Source: Candidatus Wallbacteria bacterium GWC2_49_35
GTDB taxonomy: Bacteria > Muiribacteriota > UBA9980
Assembly: GCA_001791795.1 (NCBI GenBank)
Contig: MGFH01000157.1
Coordinates: 383 to 64,382, forward strand
Direction: 5' to 3'
Length of the DNA stretch: 64,000 nucleotides
Shown here: positions 14,183 to 32,882 of the stretch, piece after piece
Numbering within the stretch: the stretch's first letter is position 1
How the letters are laid out: each line of letters begins with the position of its first letter
Notes under the pieces: generated by a model
What the model saw: only the letters and a program-made list of their open reading frames with translations
Databases searched by the model: none
Told to the model about the DNA's origin: nothing
Translations under genes and position numbers: made by a program

Positions 14183-14836
14183 ATGAAAAAAGTAGCTGTA
14201 ATACTTTCAGGATGCGGAAAACTGGATGGTTCGGAAGTCCACGAGGCGACGCTCACACTTTTAAATATAGACGCGTGCGGCGCAAAATACCAGTGCGCGT
14301 CCATCGACACCCCGCAGTCGCGCGTCATGGACCACCTGTCATCGAAAGAAAGCCATGAGAAAAGAAATATGATGATAGAATCCGCCCGTATCGCCCGCGG
14401 CGAGATCGTCGATGCCGGCGGGATATCGCCGAAAGATTACGACGCCGTAATATTTCCGGGCGGTTTCGGAGCCGCGCTTAACCTGTGCGATTTCGGCATG
14501 AACGGCGGCGAAGGCACGAAGGTGAATCCGGTTATTGAAAAAATCATCCGCGATTTTCACGCCGCTAAAAAGCCAATCGGCGCCATCTGCATCGCGCCGG
14601 TGATCGTCGCGCGCGTGCTCGCCTCGAACAAGGCGAAGATCACAATCGGCAACGATGCCGGCACGGCGGCAGCCATCAACAAATGGGGCGCCGAACACGT
14701 CAACTGCTCCGCCGAGGAAATATGCTTCGATCCAAATAATCTCCTGGTCACGACCCCCGCTTATATGCTCGCGGAAAATATCGCGCCGGTCAACCGCGGG
14801 ATCGAAAAACTTGTCAAAAAGATATTGTCGCTTTAA
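14183..14836 (+). CDS. elbB: DJ-1/PfpI-family glyoxalase ElbB
   Basis: MKKVAVILSGCGKLDGSEVHEATLTLL, IFPGGFGAALNL and PIGAICIAP are collinear with E. coli ElbB as I recall it. GGAGG lies 5 nt upstream of the ATG at 14183. Confidence 0.8.
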   Translation: MKKVAVILSGCGKLDGSEVHEATLTLLNIDACGAKYQCASIDTPQSRVMDHLSSKESHEKRNMMIESARIARGEIVDAGGISPKDYDAVIFPGGFGAALNLCDFGMNGGEGTKVNPVIEKIIRDFHAAKKPIGAICIAPVIVARVLASNKAKITIGNDAGTAAAINKWGAEHVNCSAEEICFDPNNLLVTTPAYMLAENIAPVNRGIEKLVKKILSL

Positions 14837-17341: not shown

Positions 17342-17450
17342 GAAACGGTGAATATCCTTAGATGAAAATCAGAAATTAAATAGTTTCTATAAGTCAGTAA
17401 AGCAATAAGTCAATACGCGAGCCGTGACAAGCGGGAAAAGAAAAAACACC

Positions 17451-18677
17451 ATGGAATTTAAAGTCAAAGCGTCGACCCGGACGGGAAAGATCGAAAGCCT
17501 CGATATCACTGCGCCTTCAGCCGAAGCGGTCGTGTCGCTGCTTAAAAAGCAGGACATGTTCGCCGTCGAGATCGAAAAGGTGCCCTTCGACCTGGGCCGC
17601 TATTTCAGCGCCGGCAATTTCAGGCGGATAAGGTTTTTATTCAACCGCACGAAATATCTCATCGAGTTTTCCAGGGTAGTCGCGATGCTTCTTAAATCCG
17701 GCATGCCGCTTAACGAGGCCCTGGCGGTGCTCACAGAAAAACGCGCCGCGTCGGATTACTTCACCGACATCATTACCGGCGTCAAATCGTCCGTCGATCA
17801 CGGCATTTCATTTTCACTCGCTCTGGCCCGCCATTCCGATGTGTTCGAAGACCTTTACGTCAAATCGGTCGCCAGCGGAGAAACCTCCGGAAACCTCTGC
17901 GGCGTGCTCGCTAACCTCAGCGATTATTATCAGAAAAAGCAGGCGCTTTTCAAAAAACTGCTTGCGGCCGCCGCGTATCCCGCCGTCATACTGGTTTTAA
18001 GCACTATCGGCGTCGCTTATCTTTTTTTGAACGTAGTTCCGATCTACACGAAAATGTTCCGCGAAATGGGGGCGTCGCTTCCGCCCGTGTCGCAGGTGGT
18101 TTTTTTCATAGGCGATTTCGTCGGCTCTTTTTACCTGCCGCTGGCCCTGCTCGCCGCCGCTTTCGCATTCACCCTCTATAACTGGCTCGGCACGCCGGAC
18201 GGAAAAGACGCGGGCGACAGATTGTCGCTTAAAGTGCCGCTGGTGAGCTCTTTCGTCGAAAAAACGATGTACTCTATCTTTTACAGGACGAGCGGACTTT
18301 TGATCAAATCCGGCATCAATATTATCAACGCCCTCGAGGTCAGCTCGAACGTTGTCACCAACGGCGTGCTCAACGCCAGAATCAGGCACGCGGTCAAACT
18401 TATCAAAGAAGGAAATACGATCAGTTTTTCCTTCGAAAAAAGCGGTTTCGCCGACGGCATCATCCCCAGATTAATTAAAACCGGCGAAGAGTCCGGAACC
18501 ATTTCAGAAATTTTCAACAACATTTCCAATACGATGGACGAGGAGCTCGACTCGCTCACGACTGCCTTCGAATCGCTTTTCGGGCCGCTGATACTGATAT
18601 TCGTGCTTGCCGTTTTCGGCACCATAATAATCGCGATACTGCTTCCGATGATCACCGCGGCTACGATAGTCAGCTGA
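17451..18677 (+). CDS. pilC: type IV pilus / T2SS platform protein (GspF/PilC family), operon copy
   Basis: MEFKVKASTRTGKIESLDI... N-terminus typical of PilC. Motifs: SVASGETSGNLCGVLANLS and LIKTGEESGTISEIF. Three TM segments. ORF-track GTG at 17424 is an alternative start. Confidence 0.85.
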   Translation: MEFKVKASTRTGKIESLDITAPSAEAVVSLLKKQDMFAVEIEKVPFDLGRYFSAGNFRRIRFLFNRTKYLIEFSRVVAMLLKSGMPLNEALAVLTEKRAASDYFTDIITGVKSSVDHGISFSLALARHSDVFEDLYVKSVASGETSGNLCGVLANLSDYYQKKQALFKKLLAAAAYPAVILVLSTIGVAYLFLNVVPIYTKMFREMGASLPPVSQVVFFIGDFVGSFYLPLALLAAAFAFTLYNWLGTPDGKDAGDRLSLKVPLVSSFVEKTMYSIFYRTSGLLIKSGINIINALEVSSNVVTNGVLNARIRHAVKLIKEGNTISFSFEKSGFADGIIPRLIKTGEESGTISEIFNNISNTMDEELDSLTTAFESLFGPLILIFVLAVFGTIIIAILLPMITAATIVS

Positions 18678-18703
18678 GCACAACCTTAAAAAGGAGGCCT
18701 TGC

Positions 18704-20572
18704 ATGGCCGTTTGGGAAAAGATATTATACGAGCTTAAGAACCGCAATAAAATCGATAAAGCGCGCTTCGACGCGCTCGTCTCGAAAACTCCGGCGGACG
18801 GCATAAAAGAACTTATCGCGCTCGGCGCCGTCGAAAGCGAGCAGGCGGCCTATAAATTTTATTTTTCTTCGCTGCGGGCGAGAACCCTCGAAGACGTGCT
18901 CATATCCGAAGGCACTCTTTCCGCGGCCGACCTGGAGCGCATTATAGACGAGTTCAAGGGCGTTCCCGGCAACCTCAAAGACATACTCATCGAGCGCAAC
19001 ATCGTCTATCCGCTGGCGGTTTACAAGGCCATAGCCGTTCAGCACCACGCCGATTTCGTAGACCTTAATACCGAAAAGATCGACGACGCGCTATTTTCGA
19101 AATTCGACATAAATATCGTCAGGCGCTACCAGTTCATCCCGCATAAAATGGAAGGCGACAAACTCGTTATCATCATCGACGATCCGTCCGACGTCGAACG
19201 GATAGAAGAGATCGAATCGGTTATCGGCTTTCCTACGGCCGCGTGCGTCGCGGTTAAAAGCGATATAAGCCGCATAATAAACCTGATGATCGAAACCTCA
19301 CTCAGCGAGACCGCACTCTTTTCAGACACCGACGACACTCCGCTGCTTAAAGTAGTTAACGAGGACGCCGACGATACCGCGGCCGATGCCGAATTTTTAA
19401 AGACCATGTCCGATTCGTCGATCGTCAAGACCGTCGATTCGGTTATTTTAAAGGCGATACGTAAAAAAGCCTCAGACATACATTTCGAAGTGTATCCCGA
19501 AGGGCTCAAAGTCAAATACCGTATCGACGGCGCGCTTTACGTAGTAAAAACCATCGACGTCAAATCGAAGAATTTCGTTATTTCACGCCTTAAAAATATG
19601 GCGAGCCTCGATATTTCCGAAAAACGCATACCGCAGGACGGCCGGTTCAAACGCTTTATCGACGACCGCGCCATCGATTTTCGCGTGTCGGTGCTGCCTT
19701 CGGTTTTCGGCGAGACCGTCGTAATAAGGGTTCTCGACCAGAACGCCCTCGGGCTCGACCTTAACAGGCTCGGGTTTCCCGATCACGACCTTGTCAGGTT
19801 CAAAAAGAATATTTTCAAGCCTTACGGCATGATCCTGGTCGCCGGCCCCACCGGCTCGGGCAAGACAACCACGCTTTATTCGGCCATACGCGCCATTAAA
19901 ACGCCGGAAGATAAATTCATAACCATCGAAGATCCCGTGGAATACCAGATCCCCGATATCGTTCAGATAAACGTTAACGAAAAAAAAGGCCTCACGTTCG
20001 CCTCCGGCCTTCGCTCGATTGTCAGACAGGATCCCGACGAGATAATGGTCGGCGAGATACGCGACTTTGAAACCGCAAATATCGCAATAAACGCCGCCCT
20101 GACAGGGCACCTGGTATTATCCACCATACACGCAAATAACGTCATCGACGCCATAGGGCGTCTCGTTAACATGGGCGTCGATCCTTACCAGTTCGCCGCA
20201 TCGTTCAATCTCATAATGTCGCAGAGGCTTATCCGCAAGATATGCGCCAGCTGCCGTAAAGAGCACACGCCTGACGGCGAAATGATCAAACTGATGGGCG
20301 ATTTTGAAGCGTATAAAGACAATAAGTTTTTCAGGGGCGAAGGCTGCCGTTTCTGCCATAATACCGGTTACTCCGGGCGCACCGGAATTTACGAGACCAT
20401 GCCGCTTTCCGATACGATCAAGGCGATGGTCATCGGCAGGACTTCTCCGCTCGAAATAAAGAAGCAGGCCGTTTCGGAGGGAATGACAACTCTCCGCCAG
20501 TCCGCATGGAAACGCGTCGTGGACGGCGTGAGCACGATCGAAGAAATAAACCGGATGACCTTTGAAGATTAG
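18704..20572 (+). CDS. pilB: type IV pilus assembly / T2SS ATPase (GspE/PilB family)
   Basis: T2SSE_N-like N-terminus. Walker A GPTGSGKTTTLY; ITIEDPVEY; RQDPDEIMVGEIRD; TGHLVLSTIHAN. Tetracysteine CASC...CRFC. Confidence 0.9.
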   Translation: MAVWEKILYELKNRNKIDKARFDALVSKTPADGIKELIALGAVESEQAAYKFYFSSLRARTLEDVLISEGTLSAADLERIIDEFKGVPGNLKDILIERNIVYPLAVYKAIAVQHHADFVDLNTEKIDDALFSKFDINIVRRYQFIPHKMEGDKLVIIIDDPSDVERIEEIESVIGFPTAACVAVKSDISRIINLMIETSLSETALFSDTDDTPLLKVVNEDADDTAADAEFLKTMSDSSIVKTVDSVILKAIRKKASDIHFEVYPEGLKVKYRIDGALYVVKTIDVKSKNFVISRLKNMASLDISEKRIPQDGRFKRFIDDRAIDFRVSVLPSVFGETVVIRVLDQNALGLDLNRLGFPDHDLVRFKKNIFKPYGMILVAGPTGSGKTTTLYSAIRAIKTPEDKFITIEDPVEYQIPDIVQINVNEKKGLTFASGLRSIVRQDPDEIMVGEIRDFETANIAINAALTGHLVLSTIHANNVIDAIGRLVNMGVDPYQFAASFNLIMSQRLIRKICASCRKEHTPDGEMIKLMGDFEAYKDNKFFRGEGCRFCHNTGYSGRTGIYETMPLSDTIKAMVIGRTSPLEIKKQAVSEGMTTLRQSAWKRVVDGVSTIEEINRMTFED

Positions 20573-20662
20573 AAAAAGACGATATATAAAGTAAAAACTT
20601 AAAGCAGGAAACGCATACACATTAATTTTTTTTGAAAGTAATATTAAAAAGCGGGTGTTATA

Positions 20663-21715
20663 GTGGCTGTTATTGACATAGGCGGATACAGCATAAAAGT
20701 ATTGAATAAAAATAAAACCTGCGATTTCGTACTGCCTGAAAATACGGTCGGCGGCACGTTCACGCTTCCGTTCGTCGACGGGCCGAAGCTGTCGCATGTT
20801 CTCAGGCGCGTCAAAAAAGAGACGCGAGTGTCGGAGTGCGCCCTGGTCATGCCCGATCAGTGGGCGCGCCAGCTTTTCGTCAAGATCACCAACGATGAGC
20901 CGCAGGAGAATATCAGCCGCGATTACGTCATCTGGCGGTCGAAAGATCAGATTAGAGAGGAAGTATATTCGGGCGCAAAGATCGACGCGCACGTGACGGC
21001 GGTCGAGACCGGCGAGGACAGAAAACAGCATATAAGCGCCTATCTGTGCCTCGTAAAGTACGAGATATTAAATAAGATAACCGATATTTTCGCGGAAAAC
21101 GGCATCATAATTAAATCGATCGAACTGTCCAGCCACGCGGTATACAACTATCTTTCGGCCGGCGGCGGGCTCGCGGAGAATTTCGCCATCGTTAACGTCG
21201 GCTATGAAGTCTGCACCATCTATTTTTTCATCGGCGGCCAGCCGGTTTACGTGAGAATAATCGAAACCGCCGGAAAGCACTTCGAGAACGAATTGAAAAG
21301 GGCTGCCGGAAAAGCTGCGGACACATGCGCCGCCGGCAAGACTCCCGAAGCGGGCCCGGCGCCTGAAACCGCGGCGGCTTACGACGCCGCGATCGTCGAA
21401 AAGCAAAGATACGCGAGCGAACTCGCGGTTTTAAAACTCTTCCCCGAAAAGGCCGACCTTGAATCGCTCGACGCTTTTGAAAAGAAAAGTTCCGCCGTCA
21501 GAGACAATTTCCTGAAGGAGATCCACCTGACCTTCGAGTTCTTCGCGTCCAAATTTCCGCATGCGCGTATTACCAGCGCCGTTTTAACCGGCGGAATGTG
21601 CAGATTCGGCGGCCTCGATTTCTTCCTGTCCAACTTTTTATCCATAGAGGCCCGCTACGGGGCGCCTATGGATAAGATACAAAACCTGGCGCTTTACGCA
21701 ATGAAGGAGCAGTAG
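20663..21715 (+). CDS. pilM: PilM-like actin-fold pilus assembly protein
   Basis: GTG start after GCGGGTG. Motifs: AVIDIGGYSIKVL and FAIVNVGYEVCTIYFFIGGQPVYVRIIETAGKHF. Position directly after pilB. Confidence 0.65.
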   Translation: MAVIDIGGYSIKVLNKNKTCDFVLPENTVGGTFTLPFVDGPKLSHVLRRVKKETRVSECALVMPDQWARQLFVKITNDEPQENISRDYVIWRSKDQIREEVYSGAKIDAHVTAVETGEDRKQHISAYLCLVKYEILNKITDIFAENGIIIKSIELSSHAVYNYLSAGGGLAENFAIVNVGYEVCTIYFFIGGQPVYVRIIETAGKHFENELKRAAGKAADTCAAGKTPEAGPAPETAAAYDAAIVEKQRYASELAVLKLFPEKADLESLDAFEKKSSAVRDNFLKEIHLTFEFFASKFPHARITSAVLTGGMCRFGGLDFFLSNFLSIEARYGAPMDKIQNLALYAMKEQ

Positions 21716-21718
21716 CTC

Positions 21719-22390
21719 ATGGATAAAAAGATTTGCATGAATTTTTACGTCGAACGCGAGTCGGCGATGAAATACTCGACCGCCTTCACGGTAGCGCGGG
21801 CGGTCATAATTTCTCTGCCGCTGCTTTATTTCGCATATATCGCGTATTTTTATTACTTATACTCCAGCCAGTACGGCGAGGCTAACGCCGAGATCGAGTC
21901 CATGCAGGAACAGCTCTCTAAATTTCAGCGCGAATTGAAAAATTCGCGGATCGTCTTCGCTGATTTCGATTCTTTAGAGACTGTCTTGAAAAAAGGTTTT
22001 TTATTCGACGATGAGGCACCTTTTTCCGACACCGTCGAGGCTGTGTTTTCGCCTGAAATGAATGAAAAGATAGTCAAATTAAGAGACAGTCTCGCCGGGA
22101 GCGTTAAAAAAATAAAAACCGGAGAACGCGATATTTTCGAAGGACTTTACCGAAGCGTCGAAGAATTCAAAGGTAAAATCGCCATCACCGACCTTAAACT
22201 CGATTTCACCGCCGCGAAGATCGACTTTCATATCAAATGCGCTTCGAAGGACACACTTTTGAAAATGATCGCGAATATCCGCGCGAACCGCTGGGTCGGA
22301 CAGGTATTCGTGTCGACACTTAAATCCGATGTCAACGATATCAACGCATATATACTTATCTCTCTCAAGGAGGCTGAGCTGTTTGAATGA
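21719..22390 (+). CDS. PilN-like bitopic protein (assignment by position and topology)
   Basis: AAGGAG upstream. Single TM (AVIISLPLLYFAYIAYFYYLY) followed by a coiled coil (EIESMQEQLSKFQRELK). Follows pilM with a 3-nt gap. Confidence 0.45.
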   Translation: MDKKICMNFYVERESAMKYSTAFTVARAVIISLPLLYFAYIAYFYYLYSSQYGEANAEIESMQEQLSKFQRELKNSRIVFADFDSLETVLKKGFLFDDEAPFSDTVEAVFSPEMNEKIVKLRDSLAGSVKKIKTGERDIFEGLYRSVEEFKGKIAITDLKLDFTAAKIDFHIKCASKDTLLKMIANIRANRWVGQVFVSTLKSDVNDINAYILISLKEAELFE

Positions 22391-22949
22391 ACGCGAAAAG
22401 GCCAGGCTTTTCAATCTGGCCGTGATCAACATCATGGTAATTTTATTCGCCGGATTTTTGCACATGCTGCTGCTTTCGCCTCAGCGCGACGCCGCGGCCG
22501 CGCTTGGACCGATAAAAAAGGAACTCGGCGAAAAAAAAGACGCCTCGGCGAAAGATGCCGCCGTATTTAAAAATGCCAGGGAAAAATTTAAAAGCGAAGT
22601 GCTCGAACTTAAAGAACATTTCAGGAAAAATTTCGCTGAAAAGAACGTCGAGCGTTTGCAGAATGAACTGACCGTAATGTCGCACGAATTGAAGAACCAG
22701 TTCTTCAACATGGAATTCAGCCTCAAAAAAATTTATTTCATCGAAGCGCTCGAAGTGAAGGCGTCCTTTAAATTCGTCGACATGAAAAAATTCCTCGATT
22801 TCATCGAACGCGCGCGCGCCAGATTTTATCTCGTTTCCAAAGTTATTTCGCTTAACGAATTCGGCGGCGATGCGGCCGATATTTCTTTCGATTTCTATAT
22901 ACCGTTCAACGCGTTTAAAATCAGAAATATTTTCGAGGGCAATCTATAA
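22383..22949 (+). CDS. PilO-like bitopic protein (assignment by position and topology)
   Basis: TTG at 22383 lies 9 nt after AAGGAGG and overlaps the upstream stop. The ATG at 22329 would give a 62-nt overlap. Single TM (LAVINIMVILFAGFLHMLLL) followed by a coiled coil. Confidence 0.45.
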   Translation: MNEREKARLFNLAVINIMVILFAGFLHMLLLSPQRDAAAALGPIKKELGEKKDASAKDAAVFKNAREKFKSEVLELKEHFRKNFAEKNVERLQNELTVMSHELKNQFFNMEFSLKKIYFIEALEVKASFKFVDMKKFLDFIERARARFYLVSKVISLNEFGGDAADISFDFYIPFNAFKIRNIFEGNL

Positions 22950-23032
22950 AAAAAAGCGGTTCGACCCGCCGCCGATTTCAAAAGGCTGCGGCGTGTAAAG
23001 TAAAGTTGTGTATTGGAGTTGGCTTTTAATTG

Positions 23033-23434
23033 ATGAATGATTTTTCGGCCGCGCGCAATGGCGTCAAACGCAGAAATGGTTTCTCGCTCATCGAATTATT
23101 CGTCGTGATCTCGATAATCGCGGTGTTGTCGTCGATCGCGGTGGTCAATATTTCCGCGCGCTCGAAACTGGCGAAGGACGTTTCGGTTAAAAATAACCTG
23201 ATGGTTCTCAGAGGCGCCGTCAGCCGCTATTACGCCGTCAACTCGAAGTTCCCTGAAAGCCTCCGGAAGCTCGACGGCGCCGAACTTAAAAACGCCTACC
23301 TGAAATGGGACGCGGCCAACGCCTCCGGCGGCGTTGCCTATGACCCGAAAAAAGGTTTGGTTTATCTCGTCGATAACAACGGCGCTGCGCCTGTAGCGCG
23401 CGATCTTAAAGGCGTGAGTTACGCTGAATATTAA
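23033..23434 (+). CDS. prepilin-type pseudopilin/pilin (canonical cleavage motif)
   Basis: KRRNG|FSLIELFVVISIIAVLSSIAVV matches the G-F-x-L-I-E class III signal. GspG-like body: LRGAVSRYYAVNSKFPESL. Confidence 0.8.
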   Translation: MNDFSAARNGVKRRNGFSLIELFVVISIIAVLSSIAVVNISARSKLAKDVSVKNNLMVLRGAVSRYYAVNSKFPESLRKLDGAELKNAYLKWDAANASGGVAYDPKKGLVYLVDNNGAAPVARDLKGVSYAEY

Positions 23435-23465
23435 TTGAAGTTATCTTGCGGATTATTGAATAATT

Positions 23466-23921
23466 ATGAAAAAAAATATAACGGACGCTAAAGACCGCAA
23501 CTTTATAGCCGCGCCTCATGCCGGCTCCGGCCGGCGCGCTTTTACGATAATAGAAGTGCTGACGGTTGTCGTGTTCCTTTCGATAATCAGCATGGCCGCC
23601 ATACAGAGTTTTGAATACAGCCTCCGCAAAGAAAAAGAAGAACGCCTCCGCGGCACGCTTAATTCAGTGAGAAGCGCCATAGACCGTTATTATCTCGACC
23701 GCCTCGCGGCCGCGCCCGGGACCGCTCATAAAAAACGCTTCCCTGCTTCGCTCGAGGAGCTTGTATCGGCTAAATACCTGCGCGCCGTTCCGGCCGACCC
23801 CGTTACGGGCGAGGCCACATGGGAGATAATCCTGGTTTCGAAAGACGAAAAAAGAGTTTTCGACATCAAATCAAAGGCGCGCGGCGCCGGCCTCGATAAC
23901 TCACTTTACTCCAACTGGTAA
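23466..23921 (+). CDS. pseudopilin with long leader and Ala at -1
   Basis: A 24-aa leader is followed by RRA|FTIIEVLTVVVFLSIISMAA. GspG-like body: LNSVRSAIDRYYLD...PADPVTG. Confidence 0.75.
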   Translation: MKKNITDAKDRNFIAAPHAGSGRRAFTIIEVLTVVVFLSIISMAAIQSFEYSLRKEKEERLRGTLNSVRSAIDRYYLDRLAAAPGTAHKKRFPASLEELVSAKYLRAVPADPVTGEATWEIILVSKDEKRVFDIKSKARGAGLDNSLYSNW

Positions 23922-23924
23922 ATT

Positions 23925-23952
23925 TAGTGTACAGTTTATAGTGAATAGTGCA
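23925..23952 (+). repeat. heptamer tandem array (4 units)
   Basis: TAGTGTA CAGTTTA TAGTGAA TAGTGCA, starting 3 nt after the stop at 23919-23921. Confidence 0.7.
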
Positions 23953-23970
23953 TTGTTGAAGCTCTAAAAT

Positions 23971-24000
23971 CATTATTTTTATTTTCATTATTTTTATTTG
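23971..24000 (+). repeat. 15-nt tandem duplication
   Basis: CATTATTTTTATTTT / CATTATTTTTATTTG (14 of 15 identical), 26 nt upstream of the 24026 start. Confidence 0.8.
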
Positions 24001-24025
24001 TGAATCTTAAAAGGAATCGTGCAGT

Positions 24026-24439
24026 ATGATCATCATCAATAATGACGCAATCCGTGGCAACACCGCATCCATCAGCCGGCGGGCCTTTACGCTCATCGAG
24101 GTGCTCGCCGTCGTTATCATCCTCAGTATTCTTTTCGCCGCCAGCCAGCCGCTTATAGGCGATTCTGCCCGTAAAGCGCGCGAAACGGTCCTTAAGAACA
24201 ACCTGCGCGCCGTGCGCGAAACCATCGCGCGCTTTTATAAAGACCACGAACGCTATCCCGACGGCCTCAAAGAACTCGTCGATAAAAAATATATAATCTC
24301 GCTGCCCGTCGATCCGGTTACCGAAAAGAACGATACCTGGGTCACGCTCCCCTCGAAACCGGGCGCTAAAGACCTCTACGATATCAGATCGGGCGCGGAC
24401 GGCGAAACTATCGATAAGGTCAAATATGAAAACCTGTAA
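24026..24439 (+). CDS. GspG-like pseudopilin with Ala at -1
   Basis: SRRA|FTLIEVLAVVIILSILFAAS. Body: ARKARETVLKNNLRAVRETIARFYKDHERYPDGLKELV...LPVDPVT. Confidence 0.8.
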   Translation: MIIINNDAIRGNTASISRRAFTLIEVLAVVIILSILFAASQPLIGDSARKARETVLKNNLRAVRETIARFYKDHERYPDGLKELVDKKYIISLPVDPVTEKNDTWVTLPSKPGAKDLYDIRSGADGETIDKVKYENL

Positions 24440-24923
24440 CCACAAACGACATTCCCGATTCCATACATTTACCACGAGCCTTTCTCGAGGCGGCGTGATG
24501 ATCGTCGTTATCGTTTTTATTATCGTAAGCGCCGTCATGGCCCATAAACTCGTTATCAACCCCGAAGCCGCCGTTAAAAGTTCGCGCGAAGATCAGCTCA
24601 GATCCTATGTCGCGCAATATAACATGGCGTTGCTGCGTTATCACCTCAGCGAAAAAAAATGGCCGCGCACCCTCGGCGAGATCTCTTCAAAACCCGGCTT
24701 CCTGCGTGAACTCACGCCAGACCCGTTCACTAAAAAAACTGACTACGCTCTCGCCGAGATCAACGGTCAGAAATACGTGACCTCCGCCTCCACCGAATTG
24801 AGCGCGGCCGGTAAACCTTACAACACCCTCACCGTCAACGCCGCCCGTAAATTCATCCCGCTCGCGGCCGATAAAACCCCTCCGCTCGCCGAACTCATGG
24901 GCTATAAAAGCGACTTAAAATAA
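24426..24923 (+). CDS. pseudopilin-like protein lacking the canonical FxLIE motif
   Basis: Overlaps the upstream gene by 14 nt. N-terminal segment RGGVMIVVIVFIIVSAVMA has no Glu5. The body resembles GspG: LRSYVAQYNMALLRYHLSEKKWPRTLGEI...LTPDPFT. Confidence 0.6.
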   Translation: MKTCNHKRHSRFHTFTTSLSRGGVMIVVIVFIIVSAVMAHKLVINPEAAVKSSREDQLRSYVAQYNMALLRYHLSEKKWPRTLGEISSKPGFLRELTPDPFTKKTDYALAEINGQKYVTSASTELSAAGKPYNTLTVNAARKFIPLAADKTPPLAELMGYKSDLK

Positions 24924-24985: not shown

Positions 24986-25026
24986 AATACAGCTGAAAAT
25001 AAATGTAAATAATACTGATTAATTGT

Positions 25027-25055
25027 TTGCATTTAGGCATTTGGTTTGATATAAT
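25027..25055 (+). promoter_or_regulatory. sigma70-type promoter of the radical-SAM operon
   Basis: TTGCAT (25027-32), 17-nt spacer, TATAAT (25050-55). Confidence 0.6.
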
Positions 25056-25128
25056 TTATAGTGCTGTAAAGCATACGGCAGAGCAATGCCGCCAAAGAAG
25101 ATTAAACTGGTTATAATTGGATCGTGAT

Positions 25129-26667
25129 ATGAGTAGGAAGAATTTCAAAATATTATTGCTGGACGCTCCGCAGTCGATCTGGAAGTGGTTCGACGGCACT
25201 CTGCCGTCACCGGCGCTTGCGGTGCTGGCCTCCTACACAAAAACGCTTTATGACATTCAGGTTCTGGATCTGAACGTCGATAAGACACCGTGGAAAACAT
25301 TGAAGGAGCGGCTGGACGGGTTCGCGCCCGATCTTGTAGCGCTTCCGTGTACGCATACCTGCCATGTCAACGAGGTAAGAGCGGCGCTTTTAATGATACG
25401 TAAACTTGCGCCGAAAACGCTTGTATGCGGCGGCGGCATTCACTTCAAGGTGTTCCATAAAGAATTCCTCGAAAGCGGTCTGGTTGATTTTGTAGCCATG
25501 GGCGAGGGCGAGCTGACGTTCAGCGAGCTGTGCCGTGAGCTGTCGGAATTCAAGGAGGCGGCCGCGGCGGGAACGCCCGTCGATACTGAAAATAAATACG
25601 GCCGGCTGAAGGCGATAGACGGCCTTTCGTTCATTTACGGCGGCGGAGTTCATACGACGGCGCCGCGCGCGCAAATAAAAGACCTCGATAAAATTCCGTT
25701 TCCTTCTTATGAGCTATTTCCGATGCAACATTATAAAATCCCGATATACGGCGGCAATGAGACATTCGGCATTACATTCGGCCGCGGCTGCGTCAACAAA
25801 TGCTGCTTCTGTTCTGAATCTTACGGCTGGGATTACACGATGCGCCGCAATTCGCCCGAGTATGCGGTGAAGCATATCGAGCTGCTGCGCGACAATTACA
25901 GGCGCACCACTTTTATATTCGCCGATACCGATTTTCTGGTCAACCGCAAGTGGGTCGAAGGATTCATCGACATAATAAAGCAGCGGAAGGTGAATATTAA
26001 ATTTCACATCCAGACGGCCTGCACGACGATGATACGCAACGAGTCGCTTGTGCCCGAGCTCAAGAAAATAGGGCTGTTCGAGATAATGCTTGGCACCGAG
26101 TCCCCGTTTCAGAGTGTATTGAACAAGCTGAAGAGCTTTCCGTTGAATCAGAAGACGATGATCGACGCGATGCAGCTCGTTAAAAAATATGACGTCCTGT
26201 TGATGGCGATGATGTTCTGGGGCACCGAATATGATAACGCCGAAACGCTTCGCGAGGGTTTGAAGTTTTTTGATAAATACGCCGACATCACCTGCCCGAA
26301 CGTGCTTACGCCGTATCCCGGCACCCCGCTGTATGAGGAACTGAAGGCGAAAGGCAAGATATTCGTCGACGACATGTCGCTTTACGACCAGTCGCACGTT
26401 ATAGTTCCGGCCGGCGAGATGAGCTATGCCCAAACGCGTTTGACTTATGAAATGGGGCTTTTGAGGCATTACAACCTCAACCCGTTTTATTACAGATGGT
26501 TATTTTCAAAAAATAAATTTTTAAGAATCAACTTCTGGCACTTCACCAAACTGATCTGGATGAACGCTCTGGAAGGTTTTATGAACCCGGTCCGTTATCA
26601 CAAAAAATTATTCGCCGAAGCCGAATACGAAGCGGTTATGGGTGAAAAGTGGGAAGGCGGCTTCTGA
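25129..26667 (+). CDS. B12-binding-domain radical SAM protein, paralog 1
   Basis: N-terminus KILLLDAP...LPSPALAVLAS...MGEGELTF is a Rossmann-like cobalamin-binding-type domain. Also GRGCVNKCCFCSE (CxxxCxxC), GTESPF and MMFWGTEYDN. Start chosen by alignment with paralogs; TTG at 25117 is possible. Confidence 0.85.
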   Translation: MSRKNFKILLLDAPQSIWKWFDGTLPSPALAVLASYTKTLYDIQVLDLNVDKTPWKTLKERLDGFAPDLVALPCTHTCHVNEVRAALLMIRKLAPKTLVCGGGIHFKVFHKEFLESGLVDFVAMGEGELTFSELCRELSEFKEAAAAGTPVDTENKYGRLKAIDGLSFIYGGGVHTTAPRAQIKDLDKIPFPSYELFPMQHYKIPIYGGNETFGITFGRGCVNKCCFCSESYGWDYTMRRNSPEYAVKHIELLRDNYRRTTFIFADTDFLVNRKWVEGFIDIIKQRKVNIKFHIQTACTTMIRNESLVPELKKIGLFEIMLGTESPFQSVLNKLKSFPLNQKTMIDAMQLVKKYDVLLMAMMFWGTEYDNAETLREGLKFFDKYADITCPNVLTPYPGTPLYEELKAKGKIFVDDMSLYDQSHVIVPAGEMSYAQTRLTYEMGLLRHYNLNPFYYRWLFSKNKFLRINFWHFTKLIWMNALEGFMNPVRYHKKLFAEAEYEAVMGEKWEGGF

Positions 26668-28211
26668 TGGATGCGAAAAAATATAGAATACTGCTTACAG
26701 ACGCCCCCGAAAATCTGTCGTTGTGGTTCAACGGCACTATCCCTTCCCCGGCGTTGTCGATACTGGCGGCCTGCGTAAAAAACGATTACGATCTGAAGAC
26801 GCTGGATCTGAGCATCGAGAAAAATCCATGGGAGAAGCTGAAGAATACGCTGAACGAGTTTAAACCTCATCTGGTGGGCGTTTCGTGTACTCATACCTGC
26901 CAGCTGAACGAGGTCGTGGCGGAGTTAAAGATAATACGCAAATTCGCCCCGGGAGCGCTTAAAGTAGCGGGCGGCATAATATTTTCGGTCTTTTACGAAA
27001 AATATCTTCGCGAAGGCTCGATCGATCTCGCCGTGATAGGCGAAGGCGAGACGACTTTCAGGCAGCTCACGAAAGTGTTGGCCGGACGGAAGGACGAAGA
27101 TGAAGGCGCTGGAATGCCCGCGCCGGTTAAAATATCGGCGTCGAAGGCTCTCGCGGACGAACTGCGTGCGATAGACGGTCTTGCTTTTATGGCGAATAAC
27201 GAACTGGTGAAGGCCGCGCCGCGCGAGCTTTTAAAAAACCTCGACGAAGTGCCTTTCCCGGCTTACGAACTTTACCCGATGGCAAAGTATACCTCCCCCA
27301 CTTTTTGCGGCAGCAGAGCGTTTGGCGTAATATTCAGCCGCGGCTGCAATAACCGCTGCAAGTTCTGTTCCGAGGCGTACGAATGGAATTATACGATGCG
27401 CAAGCATTCGGCGAAATACGCGGTAGACCTTATAGAGCTGCTTTACACAAAATACGGCCGCGACATATTTGTAATAGGCGACACCGATTTTTTATTCGAT
27501 CGTTCATGGGTCCTCGAATTTATGGAACTGGTCTTCGAAAGAAAATTGAAGATCAAATTTCACATTCAATCCTGCTGCGGCAGCGTCATTAAAAACCAGG
27601 ACCTGCTGCCTGAATTAAAAAAGGCAGGCCTTTTCGAGATAATGGTAGGCGCGGAATCGCCTTTTTCGGACGTACTGAAAAATCTTAAAAAGCCTTATTC
27701 GAACCCCGAAGTGATCGACAGGACGATGAAGATAATAAAGGCAAACGGCCTTCTGCTGATGACGATGCTCGTGTGGGGCACCGAATACGACACTCAGAAG
27801 ACGCTTCACGAGGGCCTGAAATATTTCGACCGCTTTTCCGATTTCGTATGTCCCAGCCCGCTGACGCCCTATCCGGGCACGCCGCTATTCGACGAGATGA
27901 AGGAGAAGGGCAAAATATTTGTGACCGATTACGCGCTATACGATCAGGCGCACGTCATAATGCCTGCGGGAGATCTTGATTACGCTGCCACCAGGCGAGT
28001 TTATGAATTCGAATTGTTCAAGTTTTTCAATTTGAATTATAAGTTTTATTTGAAGATGTTTTCTAAAAATAAATTTTTAAGGCTGAACCAGCGCGCGTAT
28101 GTAAAACTTGTATGGATACATGCGTTCGAAAGTTTCGCGTCGCGTTTCGGCTTCTCGAAAAAATTGTTCCGGCACGAAGAATACGGTAAAGTGATGAGCC
28201 AAAGGAGTTAA
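26667..28211 (+). CDS. B12-binding-domain radical SAM protein, paralog 2
   Basis: ATG shares one nt with the upstream TGA (TGATG). Motifs: RILLTDAP...IPSPALSILAA, IGEGETTF, SRGCNNRCKFCSE, GAESPF, MLVWGTEYDT. Confidence 0.85.
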   Translation: MDAKKYRILLTDAPENLSLWFNGTIPSPALSILAACVKNDYDLKTLDLSIEKNPWEKLKNTLNEFKPHLVGVSCTHTCQLNEVVAELKIIRKFAPGALKVAGGIIFSVFYEKYLREGSIDLAVIGEGETTFRQLTKVLAGRKDEDEGAGMPAPVKISASKALADELRAIDGLAFMANNELVKAAPRELLKNLDEVPFPAYELYPMAKYTSPTFCGSRAFGVIFSRGCNNRCKFCSEAYEWNYTMRKHSAKYAVDLIELLYTKYGRDIFVIGDTDFLFDRSWVLEFMELVFERKLKIKFHIQSCCGSVIKNQDLLPELKKAGLFEIMVGAESPFSDVLKNLKKPYSNPEVIDRTMKIIKANGLLLMTMLVWGTEYDTQKTLHEGLKYFDRFSDFVCPSPLTPYPGTPLFDEMKEKGKIFVTDYALYDQAHVIMPAGDLDYAATRRVYEFELFKFFNLNYKFYLKMFSKNKFLRLNQRAYVKLVWIHAFESFASRFGFSKKLFRHEEYGKVMSQRS

Positions 28212-28214
28212 ATT

Positions 28215-29717
28215 ATGAAAGTGTTATTTTTAGATCCTATCCATAAAGTGTGGGAGTTTTTCAGGGGCCTGACGGCAAATCCTGCGCTGATCTATCTCAC
28301 CGCGGTAGCGCGCCGCGATTTCAACATAAAGGTTTATGACGCTTACGGCGAAACCAGCAGGCCGTGGAACAAAACAGCCGAATATCTCGCGAAGGAACGG
28401 CCGGACGTCGTCTGCATGCCGGGCTCGCTTCCGAGCTTCTGGTACGACGTTCTTAACGCCGGCCGCCTTATCCGCGAGATACTTCCAGAAGCGAAGATCG
28501 TCACCGGCGGCTACATTTCGAATCAACTTTGGCGCGAAGGCCTGAGCAGCGGCTACCTCGATTACATAGTCATGGGCGAAGGCGAGATTACCATGATGGA
28601 ATTATTGAAGTCCATAAACAGCGGCGCATCTGATATGTCGCAGATCGAAGGCCTGGCTTACCTTAAAGACGGAAAGCCTTTCCTGACGGCCGAGCGCGCA
28701 TTCATAGACGACCTCGACACGCTGCCGATGCCGGCGTTCGACCTGTTTCCGATGAACCGTTATTCGCTGGCGCCGTTCGGCGGTAATATTGGTTTTACCG
28801 CCAATTTTTCGCGCGGCTGCGTCGGCCGGTGCAAATTCTGCTCTGAAACGCTTCTCTGGCGGCACTGCCGTCGCGGCCACAGCGCGGAGTATATGCTGGA
28901 GGTTCTTTCGACGCTTCGATATAAATACAACAAGCGCGTGTTTTATATAGGCGACGACGACTTTCTGCACGACCCCGATCGAATCGAAAAATTCACCGAA
29001 CTTGCGATTAAAACCAAACTCGACGTTAAGATGTGGATCCAGACCACATGCCGCAACGTCGTTAAACACGAGCGGCTTCTGGCCGGCCTTAAAAAGGCGG
29101 GCGTATATCAGGTGATGGTCGGCATCGAATCGCCCAAGCCGAAAGCCCTGCAAGTGCTTAACAAACCGCAAGACTTCGACATGGTCATGCGCGCGCTCGA
29201 AACACTCAAGCCGCACGAATTTATAATAATGGGCATGATGATGTGGGGAACTCCTTTTGACACGATGCAGGACCTGGTCGACAACCTCGAGTTCCTCAAC
29301 GAGCACTGCGACATAATCGGCCCTGACGCGGTCACTCCGTGGCCCGGAACGCCTTACTATGACGAGTGCGAGAAGATCGGCGCGATAGAGGTCCGCGATC
29401 TTACAAAATACGATATGACCAACTGTATAACGCGCACGGCGGAATTGTCGGCGATCGAAGCCGACTACTATTACAAAAAGACCGTCGGAAAGCATCTTAT
29501 GTTCAACAAAAAATTCCTTGGCAATTATTTATTTTCAAAAAAACCGCTCTACAGGACCTATGTGAATATGTTCGTTAAGATGGGCTGGAGCTTCTTCACA
29601 ATGAAACCGTGGACCCAGAAGAACTACCAGAGCTTCGAAGAATTCTTTCCTGAGTACCTGGCTAAAAAAGCGTCTTACCAGATGCAGAAAACCGGTGTTC
29701 TTACGAGAACGAAATGA
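28215..29717 (+). CDS. B12-binding-domain radical SAM protein, paralog 3
   Basis: 3-nt gap after paralog 2. Motifs: KVLFLDP...NPALIYLTA, MGEGEITM, SRGCVGRCKFCSE, GIESPK, MMMWGTPFDT. Confidence 0.85.
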   Translation: MKVLFLDPIHKVWEFFRGLTANPALIYLTAVARRDFNIKVYDAYGETSRPWNKTAEYLAKERPDVVCMPGSLPSFWYDVLNAGRLIREILPEAKIVTGGYISNQLWREGLSSGYLDYIVMGEGEITMMELLKSINSGASDMSQIEGLAYLKDGKPFLTAERAFIDDLDTLPMPAFDLFPMNRYSLAPFGGNIGFTANFSRGCVGRCKFCSETLLWRHCRRGHSAEYMLEVLSTLRYKYNKRVFYIGDDDFLHDPDRIEKFTELAIKTKLDVKMWIQTTCRNVVKHERLLAGLKKAGVYQVMVGIESPKPKALQVLNKPQDFDMVMRALETLKPHEFIIMGMMMWGTPFDTMQDLVDNLEFLNEHCDIIGPDAVTPWPGTPYYDECEKIGAIEVRDLTKYDMTNCITRTAELSAIEADYYYKKTVGKHLMFNKKFLGNYLFSKKPLYRTYVNMFVKMGWSFFTMKPWTQKNYQSFEEFFPEYLAKKASYQMQKTGVLTRTK

Positions 29718-31234
29718 AGATATTATTTATCGATCCGCCTCATAAGCCGTGGGAGTTCTTTCCCGGCATAATGCCCTCGCCCGGTCTTCTTGCGATAATA
29801 CCGTCGGCGCAAGTTTTGAAATGCGTTGAAATTTCGGTTTTAGACCTGTCGCTCGAACTCGATCCGGTAACGGCGCTTATAATGGCGTGCAAAAAATTCG
29901 CGCCCGATGTCGCCGCAATTTCCGGCGCGAAGTCGGCGTTCGCGTATGAAACTTTAAACGCGGCCGCGCTGGTTCGCAAATACGCTCCCAAAGCGGTTCT
30001 GATCGGCGGCGGCAATTTTCTTTCGTCTTACGCCGACGAGGTCATCGAGCGCGGATATTTCGACGCTGTGGCTACCGGCGAGGGCGAAAAAGTTTTCGAA
30101 GAGCTGCTTTTGGCCATTGATGAAGACCGGATCGGCGATATCGCGAATGTCCCCGGTATAGCCTATATGAAAGAGTTTGCCGCTCAAGGCGGCGGCGCGT
30201 ACCGCAAAACTTTGCGAAAAGTTTTTTCGGAATTCGCCTTCGACGGCGCGGACGGGTTTTATTCGCCCGGCACGGCTTTCGGCGCCGAAAAAAGTTTCGG
30301 CGCCATATATAACCAGCCGGCGCCTCAGATAAAAGACCTTGATTCTCTTCCGATTCCGGCGTTCGAATGTTTCGACATGGATTCATACACGCTTCCTCCG
30401 CTCGGCGGCCGGGTGGGCTTCGTCACCAGCTTCAGCCGCGGCTGTGTTAAAAAATGCTCGTTCTGCGCCGATTCGGCATTCTGGGGCCACAAGTGGCGCG
30501 GTTACGGCGCGAAACGCTGCGTCGAAATACTTAAGATCCTCAGCAGCGCTTATGGCCGCCGCGTTTTTTACTTCGGCGACGGAGATTTCTGGCAGGACGA
30601 AAAACGTAACCTCGAATTTTTAGAGCTGCTTGAAAGCGAGAAAAAGCGAGGTTTCGAGATCAATTTCTGGATTCAGAGTTCCGTCGATAACATACTGGCG
30701 AACGGGCATTTGATCAAACGATACCGGGCCGCGGGCCTTTACCAGATAATGTGCGGTTTCGAAAGCGTTTCGGGCGCCGCGCAGCGGTCGTTCAAAAAGA
30801 TTATCGCCGTCGATAAGATGAAGGCCGTCTCGTCGCTTTTAAAAAAGAATGGTGTGCTTCTTATGGGAATGATGATGTGGGGCGATTATAACGACACCGC
30901 CGAAACGCTTGCTGAAAGCCTCGAGTTCATGGTGAAACACTGCGACGTTATCGGCCCTAACACGGTGCTCGCGCATTACAAAACGGCGTATTTCGAAGAG
31001 CGCGCCAGACGCCACGGCATAAGCAAATTCGATGTGCTCGAAAACGACCAGTGCGAGATAATATTTCCGACCGCGACCCTCGGCGTTGCGGAAGCCGCGT
31101 CGGTGTACCGCAACATGGTGCTGAAAACGCTCATATCCAAAAAGAAATTCATCGCCAATTACCTCGGCGTCAATAACGTGCGCGTAAAGAAGATAATGTC
31201 GGAATTGGCTGAAAAGGGTTTTGAAAAATATTGA
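29714..31234 (+). CDS. B12-binding-domain radical SAM protein, paralog 4 (most divergent)
   Basis: ATGA overlap with paralog 3. Motifs: KILFIDPP...MPSPGLLAI, TGEGEKVF, SRGCVKKCSFCAD, GFESVS, MMMWGDYNDT. Confidence 0.85.
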   Translation: MKILFIDPPHKPWEFFPGIMPSPGLLAIIPSAQVLKCVEISVLDLSLELDPVTALIMACKKFAPDVAAISGAKSAFAYETLNAAALVRKYAPKAVLIGGGNFLSSYADEVIERGYFDAVATGEGEKVFEELLLAIDEDRIGDIANVPGIAYMKEFAAQGGGAYRKTLRKVFSEFAFDGADGFYSPGTAFGAEKSFGAIYNQPAPQIKDLDSLPIPAFECFDMDSYTLPPLGGRVGFVTSFSRGCVKKCSFCADSAFWGHKWRGYGAKRCVEILKILSSAYGRRVFYFGDGDFWQDEKRNLEFLELLESEKKRGFEINFWIQSSVDNILANGHLIKRYRAAGLYQIMCGFESVSGAAQRSFKKIIAVDKMKAVSSLLKKNGVLLMGMMMWGDYNDTAETLAESLEFMVKHCDVIGPNTVLAHYKTAYFEERARRHGISKFDVLENDQCEIIFPTATLGVAEAASVYRNMVLKTLISKKKFIANYLGVNNVRVKKIMSELAEKGFEKY

Positions 31235-31283
31235 ACATAACTTGCCGTATAATATCGCTTAATGCGGCCAGATCGCGAACGGC

Positions 31284-32561
31284 GTGCTTTATGAACGGCA
31301 AGTGAAAGACGGCGCAATGAACGATAACGAATTCAAAGATAAAAGTATCAACGCCGGAGGCGCTGCCGGCGAGGCCGGAAAACTTCCGCCTGGCGGAGAT
31401 TCCGGTTATAAGAGCGGATATTATCTTCAGCTGTCCGAAGAGTTTTTCAAATATTCGTTTTTTTTGTTGTTCATAGTTTTTGGCGCGCTGTATTACCGCA
31501 ATTATATCCTCCCGCCCGATTACTCGCCGGTCAAGGCCGCCGGTCTCTTTTTCCTTATATATTTCGTATTCGGAATATTTTATATACTTCTGCCGCTCAA
31601 ACGCATGCTTTTTTCGAACCTTCAGATATACCGCAAAAAACTTAACCTGAACTCAAAATATGAACAACTCGTCAGTAAAGCTGTATCCCATACGCTGCAA
31701 AACCATGACGCGTCAGCGTTCCAGGCAGGAGCCAAATCTAAAACTGCCGCGCTTATAACCTGCCGGACCGATTATTACGTGGCCTTCGCGCCTTTCTTCC
31801 TTTCGCTCTGCCTGTCGGTCGCCGCCTTCTCGGTTTTCTCTGCCGTAAATGAAAACGCTTCAGCCGTTCGTTCTTTTAATTTGATAGCGGCGGCTTACCT
31901 TTTGATCGGTTTCGTTGCCGCACTCACGGGGTTCCGGCATTTTATCAACCGGCCCGATTCCACGCACCGTGGCTTTTTGCTGCTGATCCTGGTTTTGAAT
32001 TCGTTTTTTTCCGTATCGCTGTGCGTGAATTTTCCTTTATTCGCTCATTATAAAAATCTTCTGGCCATCGTAAATTTAATTATGCTCGGATATTTTTTGT
32101 ATTGCGTCCTTTATAAAGACGATCTGACGGCCTTCGTCAGAACGCCGGACCGCAATATTTACGTGATGTCCTTGAATTCGGCCGGCGGGGCGGTTCACGG
32201 TTTTGAAAAGATCGAGTTCGGAACTATCTGCAAATTCGTTCAAACTCCCTTCGCCATAGGCTTCACTATTTACGAGCGGGAGGACGAAACCGGTTTCGGC
32301 GGCCTATACTATTGCGATACTTCGAAAGAGGCCCTGGAAAAGGTTTTGGAAGTCTTCTCGGACCGCATCGCGGAAAAAGGCGAAACCCCGGCGGCGGAAG
32401 CCGGAGTTCCCAAAAATTCAGTGAATTTCTTCGAGCCTCTGAGCGTAGCCGCACTTGCCAGAAAATATGGTTCCGGCCAGACGCTGGTCCTGCTTGCAAT
32501 AAATATAGTTTCAGCCGCAATGTTTTATGAAATTTTCATGTTTCTGGCGGCCGGAAAATAG
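31284..32561 (+). CDS. polytopic membrane protein (about 8-10 TM) with a C-terminal soluble insert
   Basis: Many hydrophobic segments, e.g. FFLLFIVFGALYY, LFFLIYFVFGIFYILLPL, FFLSLCLSVAAFSVFSAV, LLLILVLNSFFSVSLCV, LIMLGYFLYCVLY, LVLLAINIVSAAMFYEIFMFLAA. ATG at 31318 (MNDNEF...) is an alternative start. Confidence 0.65.
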   Translation: MLYERQVKDGAMNDNEFKDKSINAGGAAGEAGKLPPGGDSGYKSGYYLQLSEEFFKYSFFLLFIVFGALYYRNYILPPDYSPVKAAGLFFLIYFVFGIFYILLPLKRMLFSNLQIYRKKLNLNSKYEQLVSKAVSHTLQNHDASAFQAGAKSKTAALITCRTDYYVAFAPFFLSLCLSVAAFSVFSAVNENASAVRSFNLIAAAYLLIGFVAALTGFRHFINRPDSTHRGFLLLILVLNSFFSVSLCVNFPLFAHYKNLLAIVNLIMLGYFLYCVLYKDDLTAFVRTPDRNIYVMSLNSAGGAVHGFEKIEFGTICKFVQTPFAIGFTIYEREDETGFGGLYYCDTSKEALEKVLEVFSDRIAEKGETPAAEAGVPKNSVNFFEPLSVAALARKYGSGQTLVLLAINIVSAAMFYEIFMFLAAGK

Positions 32562-32659: not shown

Positions 32660-32882
32660 GTGCTTCTCGCCGAAGACGAGCAGGTTCGAAACCGCTGCCC
32701 GTATAAGGGAACTGGAAAAGAACTCCGGCGGTCGTGTGCCGATAATAGCGCTCACCGCTTACGCCATGCCGGGCGACCGCGAGAAATTCATCGCGGCCGG
32801 CATGGACGATTATATAACCAAGCCCATAAACGGGCCTCACGACCTGATAAGCGCCGTGGAAAAGCATCTTGGCCGCGGCTAG
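32660..32882 (+). pseudogene. decayed CheY-like receiver domain (internal deletion plus frameshift)
   Basis: The frame from GTG 32660 reads VLLAEDEQV (receiver beta-1), then turns Arg-rich. The +1 frame reads FETAARIRELEKNSGGRVPIIALTAYAMPGDREKFIAAGMDDYITKPINGPHDLISAVEKHLGRG* (receiver alpha3 to alpha5). The roughly 45 residues carrying the phospho-acceptor Asp are missing. Confidence 0.7.

Follow-up and report, generated by a model that had tools for sequence, protein, structure and literature searches.

The subject of this analysis is a compact operon in a 64,000-nucleotide (nt) stretch of DNA, hereafter the window, from Candidatus Wallbacteria bacterium GWC2_49_35 (contig MGFH01000157.1). 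It encodes four tandem paralogs, R1 to R4, each joining a B12-binding domain to a radical S-adenosylmethionine (radical-SAM) domain, followed by a polytopic membrane protein, M. The five proteins are identical to entries of GCA_003488345.1 / Wallbacteria GWC2_49_35-type assemblies. The features of the operon, with positions counted in the window and the strand in brackets, are:

25026..25055 (+): sigma-70-type promoter, TTGCAT, 17 nt and a TG-extended TATAAT; 10/12 in the consensus scan
25129..26667 (+): R1, 512 amino acids (aa), class-B-type radical-SAM paralog
26667..28211 (+): R2, 514 aa, the paralog nearest R1; 1-nt overlap between its start and the R1 stop
28215..29717 (+): R3, 500 aa, the most conserved paralog, with a strong AAGGAG ribosome-binding site
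29714..31234 (+): R4, 506 aa, divergent, with an insertion of ~40 aa between its two domains and an ATGA overlap with R3
31317..32561 (+): M, 414 aa, a seven-transmembrane (7-TM) orphan with a PH-like beta domain; alternative GTG start at 31284

The operon and its products

A preliminary description of this DNA, made from the letters alone, had placed four full-length homologous open reading frames (ORFs) at 25129-31234, joined by tight junctions and preceded by a TTGCAT-17-TATAAT promoter, and all of this is borne out. R1 and R2 meet in a TGATG (1-nt overlap), R2 and R3 are separated by a gap of 3 nt, and R3 and R4 share an ATGA (4-nt overlap). The promoter is additionally TG-extended, and the corresponding operons of two other species (L013 and L014) are preceded by the very same -35 and extended -10 elements, which L012 keeps in part; this conservation implies that the operon is transcribed alone and not as the tail of the pseudopilin genes that precede it. 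No terminator-like site was found on the + strand between R4 and M, and the M start at 31317, 82 nt after R4, is favoured by the alignment of homologues and by public gene calls. R1-R4 and M are one unit, held together by translational coupling and by a private promoter conserved in L013 and L014. Scans for ORFs down to 20 aa in the operon surroundings and intergenic regions gave no credible precursor-peptide ORF, in agreement with the earlier reading, and the absence of a substrate gene from the vicinity of the operon holds as well. An Rfam scan of both strands of the whole window returned nothing at the gathering score, be it tRNA, riboswitch or other RNA.

R1-R4 are enzymes of the class B type, with a B12-binding domain and a radical-SAM core, as had been proposed for all four and as Pfam, a sequence search of the PDB and structure agree. 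The B12-binding profile PF02310 scores 52.1, 52.8, 36.1 and 28.6 bits for R1 to R4, with R4 alone under the gathering score of 32.1, and the radical-SAM profile PF04055 is present in all four at 40-69 bits (R1 51, R4 40). The motifs pointed out earlier (CxxxCxxC, GEGE, G-x-ES and M-x-WG..D) are all invariant across the four paralogs, the Cys triad and GEGE also in 38 family members, the [4Fe-4S]/SAM site is intact in each enzyme, and a profile built from the four retrieves OxsB, CysS, AprD4, TokK and TsrM from the PDB. R4 was chosen for modelling because it is the weakest class case. The preliminary description had allowed for N-terminal domains without a cobalamin-binding fold; the AlphaFold2 model of R4 (predicted local distance difference test, pLDDT, 88.5; predicted template modelling score, pTM, 0.88) has a five-strand beta-alpha-beta, Rossmann-like N-domain. 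Its full-length Foldseek matches are TsrM, AprD4, MgmA, CysS, OxsB and TokK (E-values 4e-20 to 2e-14, TM-scores 0.62-0.69). Cobalamin binding and methyl transfer by R1-R4 are predicted from sequence and model; to our knowledge there is no universal cobalamin-ligand motif across class B enzymes, and AprD4 has the same fold yet works without cobalamin. The C-terminal 85 residues of R1-R3 are rich in aromatic residues (22-24% vs 13% overall) and carry a net charge of +3 to +12, which is weak evidence that these tails may bind the membrane interface.

M had been anticipated as a polytopic protein of 8-10 TM segments starting 49-83 nt past R4; it is polytopic and starts 82 nt past R4, but its AlphaFold2 model (pLDDT 75.7, pTM 0.71) has seven TM segments. 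The chain runs through two TM segments, a K/R-rich helical segment, four TM segments, a beta domain of six strands with a helix at its C-terminal end, and one last TM segment. The beta domain is PH-like in appearance, with weak matches to EVH1, Pru and PH folds. Foldseek found no whole-protein match among solved folds (best E-value 0.43), and neither NCBIfam nor a PDB sequence search gave a match. A relationship to DUF6962 was rejected as a chance match because it is sub-threshold (20 bits vs a 27-bit cut-off) and occurs in 1 of 14 M family members. When 1.84 billion representative proteins were searched exhaustively with a HMMER profile, nine came back at E <= 1e-3, eight of them clear members and the weakest marginal at 3e-5. 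Hence, M is an orphan protein. It evolves much faster than the enzymes, yet keeps the short invariant motifs D152 and S-T-H217, while conservation of its Cys residues does not reach the distant members of the family. By the positive-inside rule, the K/R-rich segment, D152, S-T-H217 and the beta domain would all lie on the cytoplasmic side in the model, that is, the side of the radical-SAM enzymes.

Conservation and history of the module

Relatives of the module were collected by a GTDB-wide scan seeded with R3 orthologues and by exact-protein look-ups. Conservation in related genomes, raised in the preliminary description as a possibility, is confirmed: R1-(R2)-R3-R4-M recurs in about nine related species-level metagenome-assembled genomes (MAGs), in at least three different neighbourhoods, with three to five radical-SAM paralogs per module. 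The order R1-R2-R3-R4-M is found in the window, L013, L014, L015, L018/L020, L010 and L011; L012 has R1-R2-R3-R3'-R4-M, with five enzymes; L016 has R1-R3-R4-M, with M extending past the contig end; and L008/L017 have R1-R3-R4 with no M within 8-10 kb, so that M is not strictly required. A co-loss of R2 and M was considered and rejected, as L016 lacks R2 and still has M. The membrane protein is nevertheless a genuine component of the module, standing directly downstream of R4 in every locus that has it. The most divergent M that could be placed (26% identity) follows an R4 orthologue (58% identity) and precedes PFK, and in L011 and L012 M overlaps the stop codon of R4 by 4 nt, which makes it translationally coupled to R4 there, as judged from the gene sequences. 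With its recurrence in about nine MAG species and in different neighbourhoods, the module has the look of a core trait passed on vertically, unlike a natural-product cluster of sporadic occurrence.

Concerning the flanks, four pseudopilin genes with N-methyl motifs end 206 nt upstream of R1, and it had been suggested, as one possibility, that the enzymes act on the adjacent pseudopilins or type IV pilins. Outside the window, pilin adjacency was found in one close relative, ADurb.Bin243 (L013), which shows the same arrangement with 3-4 kb of unrelated genes inserted on each side of the module. Pseudopilins upstream together with PFK and HutI downstream occur in close syntenic relatives only, and because L013 is such a relative, with synteny that includes PFK and HutI, the adjacency is inherited and not selected. 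In L010-L012 the flanks hold LexA, amidase-like proteins and an isochorismatase-family protein, and in L008/L017 xanthine-dehydrogenase-like and 5'-nucleotidase genes (in L017 also glycosyltransferase genes); pilins are absent from all of these, and the enzyme module is still intact there. The conserved unit is R1 to M, and the neighbouring pilin genes owe their place to inherited synteny and not to a functional link. A pilin substrate is therefore very improbable, and is effectively ruled out by the comparative context together with the module's own conserved promoter.

On the downstream side, an ORF of 48 aa at window 32736-32882 (+) is what is left of a response-regulator receiver domain, namely its C-terminal part. 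The matching position in ADurb.Bin243 (L013 14387-18021) holds two genes, for an intact ABC substrate-binding protein and for a hybrid sensor kinase of 779 aa, which implies a deletion of ~3.5 kb between M and the PFK gene in the lineage of the window.

The paralogs themselves are old. In pairwise BLASTP comparisons (E-values 1e-64 to 0) R1 and R2 are 49% identical and all other pairs 29-35%. The earlier impression that R1 and R2 are the closest pair stands, whereas R4, thought to be the most divergent, is so only marginally, R3 being about equally far from R1/R2. A neighbour-joining tree with 200 bootstraps gives 100% support to each of three clades, namely R3 (Wallbacteria plus Elusimicrobia), R4, and R1 plus R2 plus a singleton of ADurb.Bin243, and 77% to all R proteins as one clade. 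In related MAGs the orthologues are 65-84% identical for R1, 56-83% for R2 (absent in L016 and L017) and, in Wallbacteria-type MAGs, 67-87% for R3; against the L012 lineage the values are R3 85%, R1 65%, R4 59%, R2 56% and M 28%. Every paralog has full-length orthologues across the lineage with its motifs intact, and R3 is the one paralog with single-copy orthologues beyond the phylum, in Elusimicrobia (57-60% identity) and in delta-proteobacterial/Myxococcales MAGs (~40%). On these comparisons, R3 is the ancestral and slowest-evolving paralog, and the array reflects long-term retention and specialisation rather than recent amplification. The paralogs are thus ancient and retained, and the successive tandem duplications proposed earlier are to be seen as three old subfamilies (R1/R2, R3 and R4), among which R1/R2 is the sole comparatively recent duplication.

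Two loci depart from the common pattern of paralogs. In L012 (10001-13124) R3 is tandem-duplicated, the copies being 85% and 68% identical to R3 of the window, so the copy number of the array is still changing. ADurb.Bin243 has in addition a stand-alone R1/R2-like gene (L006 10001-11563 / L007 7892-9454; 47% identity), directly downstream of prfB (release factor RF-2) and far from the main operon, which branches outside the R1 plus R2 pair.

Characterised families and loci in other phyla

BchE (TIGR02026) is the top NCBIfam match of each paralog, with 168.5, 164.7, 178.6 and 130.2 bits for R1 to R4 over an alignment of ~420 residues, against a curated whole-protein cut-off of 481.35 bits. It is followed, all at 50-95 bits and all under their cut-offs, by HpnR (TIGR04367; 80-94 bits vs 650), a P-methyltransferase family, ApyD (NF050148; 57-85 vs 750), HpnJ (TIGR03471; 52-86 vs 577.6), TIGR03975 (55-89 vs 281.85) and TIGR04072, a lipid B12 radical-SAM family of ladderane-type clusters (57-84 vs 360). 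In rank, HpnR comes second for R1, R2 and R4 and fourth for R3, and HpnJ lies between fifth and eighth. Since every NCBIfam cut-off is missed, assignment of R1-R4 to a curated subfamily was rejected, and the expectation that they fall outside the characterised ones is upheld: they belong to a known enzyme class and to an uncharacterised subfamily. No published literature on this module or its proteins was found in the searched library. A reading as a defence system was also rejected, the sole PADLOC match being a weak one of R3 to PDC-M51A (26 bits).

Three Elusimicrobia genomes have an R3 orthologue in radical-SAM-rich islands that adjoin bamA-ompH-lpxD (L027 6226-21491; L025 6471-21479; L029 1-20351) and contain up to about ten radical-SAM genes. 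A CrtI-family FAD oxidase of 509-511 aa lies near the R3 orthologue in all three; its copies in two of the loci share 80% identity, and it reaches 163 bits against the TIGR02734 cut-off of 238. Depending on the locus, the islands also hold a U32 pair (UbiU/UbiV, which are O2-independent hydroxylases, belong to this family), a glycosyltransferase, a fusion of radical-SAM and flavodoxin, several remote B12 radical-SAM genes (just 22-27% identical to R1-R4), a PapB-like SPASM enzyme and an HxsB/HxsD system. In L025 this last system comes with a (SHG)n-repeat peptide at 14330-14626. The same locus has a NifH/NifD-like fusion from 20380, ~9 kb off the R3 orthologue and preceded by four radical-SAM genes; nflH/nflD-like genes were found near an R3 orthologue solely there, and in neither the window nor any Wallbacteria-type locus. 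Group VI nitrogenase-like paralogs have been described as surrounded by a large set of radical-SAM proteins, with tetrapyrrole reduction predicted for the system and the Myxococcales also reported to have it (Meheust et al. 2020, bioRxiv 10.1101/765248). With their many radical-SAM genes, the Elusimicrobia islands match this description, and the L025 island appears to be such a context.

More distant, outgroup homologues score 213-250 bits with BchE and up to 170 bits with HpnR. One of them (L031) lies in a three-gene operon with a DrrAB-type ABC-2 exporter, another (L033, 8639-11422) directly follows a U32 gene, and a third locus (L034, 1-21530) holds a UbiA prenyltransferase, a Tes/TrsS-like radical-SAM gene, an isoprenylcysteine-methyltransferase-like membrane protein and three U32 genes. 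It can be added that U32 (UbiU/V-like) genes recur beside BchE/HpnR-like B12 radical-SAM homologues on the unrelated metagenomic contigs L033 and L034, a pairing on which no literature was found in the searched library.

Possible substrates and function

The interpretation we favour, and hold tentatively, is a sequential, membrane-associated tailoring of a hydrophobic, lipid-like substrate, with M as docking or presenting partner. By analogy, the set of partners that recurs around relatives of R3 (CrtI-type desaturase, UbiU/V-like hydroxylases, prenyltransferase, exporter, membrane proteins) would suggest a hydrophobic substrate that resides in the membrane. After BchE, the characterised families closest to R1-R4 include two of lipid enzymes, HpnR and HpnJ, as well as the lipid family TIGR04072, and an envelope-associated lipid substrate is plausible. 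As to its nature, the chemistry, the order of the steps and a scaffold role of M, we infer a lineage-specific tailoring machine in which four cytoplasmic radical-SAM enzymes would be produced at coupled levels with a 7-TM partner dedicated to them. Each paralog would act in turn, and at its own position, on a small hydrophobic molecule embedded in the membrane (an isoprenoid chain, an acyl lipid chain or a polyprenyl quinone are candidates), through radical chemistry at unactivated carbons, be it C-methylation, C-C bond formation or both, while M would serve to dock the enzymes at the membrane or to present them with the substrate. R3, single copy in Elusimicrobia, would be the ancestral catalyst, and R1/R2, R4 and M would be additions of the Wallbacteria lineage. 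A wider proposal, that Wallbacteria make an undescribed, multiply radical-modified membrane lipid or cofactor by a membrane-docked assembly of three to five paralogs, with an R3-only version in some Elusimicrobia and M as a new type of scaffold or presenter, is doubtful on present grounds.

Several observations weigh against a lipid-like substrate presented by M. No lipid, isoprenoid or quinone biosynthesis genes were found in the window or beside the Wallbacteria-type modules, a window-wide Pfam search for lipid, porphyrin and B12 genes yielding only housekeeping, glycogen, type IV pilus/type II secretion system (T2SS)-like and LptF/G genes. BchE, a tetrapyrrole enzyme, scores about twice as high as HpnR, and the cobalamin-free AprD4 is among the top structure matches of R4. 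M has no recognisable catalytic or transport fold, and L008/L017 keep the enzymes without it. The clues from gene context come from proteins 35-60% identical to R3, in other phyla and in crowded radical-SAM islands, and these same islands also hold SPASM peptide-maturase-like genes and HxsB/HxsD.

The BchE match carries the case for tailoring of a tetrapyrrole or cofactor, either by BchE-like ring formation or by BchQ/BchR-like side-chain methylation, with M as a membrane apoprotein or carrier whose invariant His217 is a possible axial ligand. BchE is the best profile for all four paralogs, at 130-179 bits, roughly double the score of the family that follows, and the outgroup homologues reach 213-250 bits with it; the L025 orthologue lies ~9 kb from the NifH/NifD-like fusion, and an R3 homologue (40% identity) occurs in a MAG of the Myxococcales, the order reported with group VI systems. 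All these scores nonetheless stay far under the cut-off of 481, no tetrapyrrole, Nif-like or chelatase gene was found in the window or beside the Wallbacteria modules, the nitrogenase-like adjacency occurs, at a distance, in one of the three Elusimicrobia loci, and the oxidase conserved beside R3 scores with the CrtI family and not with protoporphyrinogen oxidase, which leaves a tetrapyrrole substrate unlikely. Rather unlikely, too, is the modification of a peptide or protein, in which R1-R4 would be C-methyltransferases or cross-linkers, possibly of the type that acts on ribosomally synthesised and post-translationally modified peptides (RiPPs), with a precursor encoded elsewhere or M itself as substrate. 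The RiPP class B families ApyD and TIGR03975 are among the secondary matches (55-89 bits), although their cut-offs are all missed by a wide margin, and sets of several B12 radical-SAM paralogs are known from RiPP pathways (PoyB/PoyC, the bottromycin methyltransferases). A PapB-like SPASM radical-SAM gene adjoins the Elusimicrobia R3 orthologues in L025, L029 and L030, and a more distant homologue, P0099 (L034), has a similar SPASM neighbour. Against this, there is no precursor-like ORF in or around the operon of the window and in the other loci the intergenic gaps leave no room for a conserved one, Pfam gives no RiPP recognition element (RRE)/PqqD domain in R1-R4, and RiPP clusters are not typically conserved vertically across a phylum in housekeeping neighbourhoods, as this module is. 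M as the substrate would fit its fast evolution relative to the enzymes around short invariant motifs, but its Cys residues are not kept in distant members and L017 has the enzymes without M. What probability remains after the readings named here falls to substrates outside those considered.

Several known systems are close to the module. BchE, the anaerobic Mg-protoporphyrin IX monomethyl ester cyclase, shares with R1-R4 the two-domain architecture, a similar length and the best profile match, whereas the module lies outside any photosynthesis or tetrapyrrole context, has four paralogs and a membrane partner, and reaches 130-179 of 481 bits. HpnR, HpnP and HpnJ are likewise cobalamin-domain radical-SAM enzymes, and the hopanoid enzymes act on a membrane lipid; here the differences are the HpnR score (80-94 vs 650 bits), the lack of hpn or squalene genes near the module, and the dedicated polytopic partner that the hopanoid enzymes do without. 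ThnK/L/P, PoyB/C, the bottromycin methyltransferases and the iterative CysS and TokK, the last two among the best sequence and structure matches of R1-R4, illustrate how one scaffold is worked on, regiospecifically or iteratively, by several related B12 radical-SAM enzymes, but such natural-product sets sit in clusters with scaffold genes (non-ribosomal peptide synthetase, precursor peptide, beta-lactam core), while the module is a scaffold-free, conserved lineage trait. Finally, the group VI nitrogenase-like islands of groundwater Elusimicrobia have a single-copy R3 orthologue (57-60%) among many B12 radical-SAM genes and no M protein, and no Nif-like, CrtI-like or U32 gene adjoins the module in Wallbacteria.

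For most class B radical-SAM enzymes we know of no established substrate. The solved ones perform chemically demanding methylations, ring contractions and C-C couplings, and some of their products are geochemical lipid biomarkers (methylhopanoids, ringed tetraethers). The module is unusual in being conserved across a candidate phylum, with three to five specialised paralogs and a private membrane protein, and it is compact (~7.5 kb, one promoter), small enough to be transferred into an expression host. Were its product a lipid or membrane cofactor, this would be new envelope chemistry in an uncultivated anaerobic lineage and, if true, might give a first functional handle on the large radical-SAM islands of Elusimicrobia; were it an ordinary tailoring step, the gain would be modest. 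Any new chemistry is at this stage prospective, and uncharacterised class B enzymes are very numerous, yet the module is a reasonable candidate for experimental substrate discovery.

A final point relates to the rest of the window. Upstream of the operon, at 17424-24923, lies a type IV pilus/T2SS-like cluster with a PilC-like T2SSF protein, a PilB/GspE-like ATPase, a PilM-like protein, two small membrane proteins and the four pseudopilins; a second T2SSF gene is found ~9 kb further upstream, at 7689-8909. A protein of 1333 aa with four CHB_HEX_C_1 / Fn3_assoc repeat units is encoded at 1988-5989, and the next gene, at 6003-7664, encodes an FHA-GAF-adenylate/guanylate cyclase fusion.

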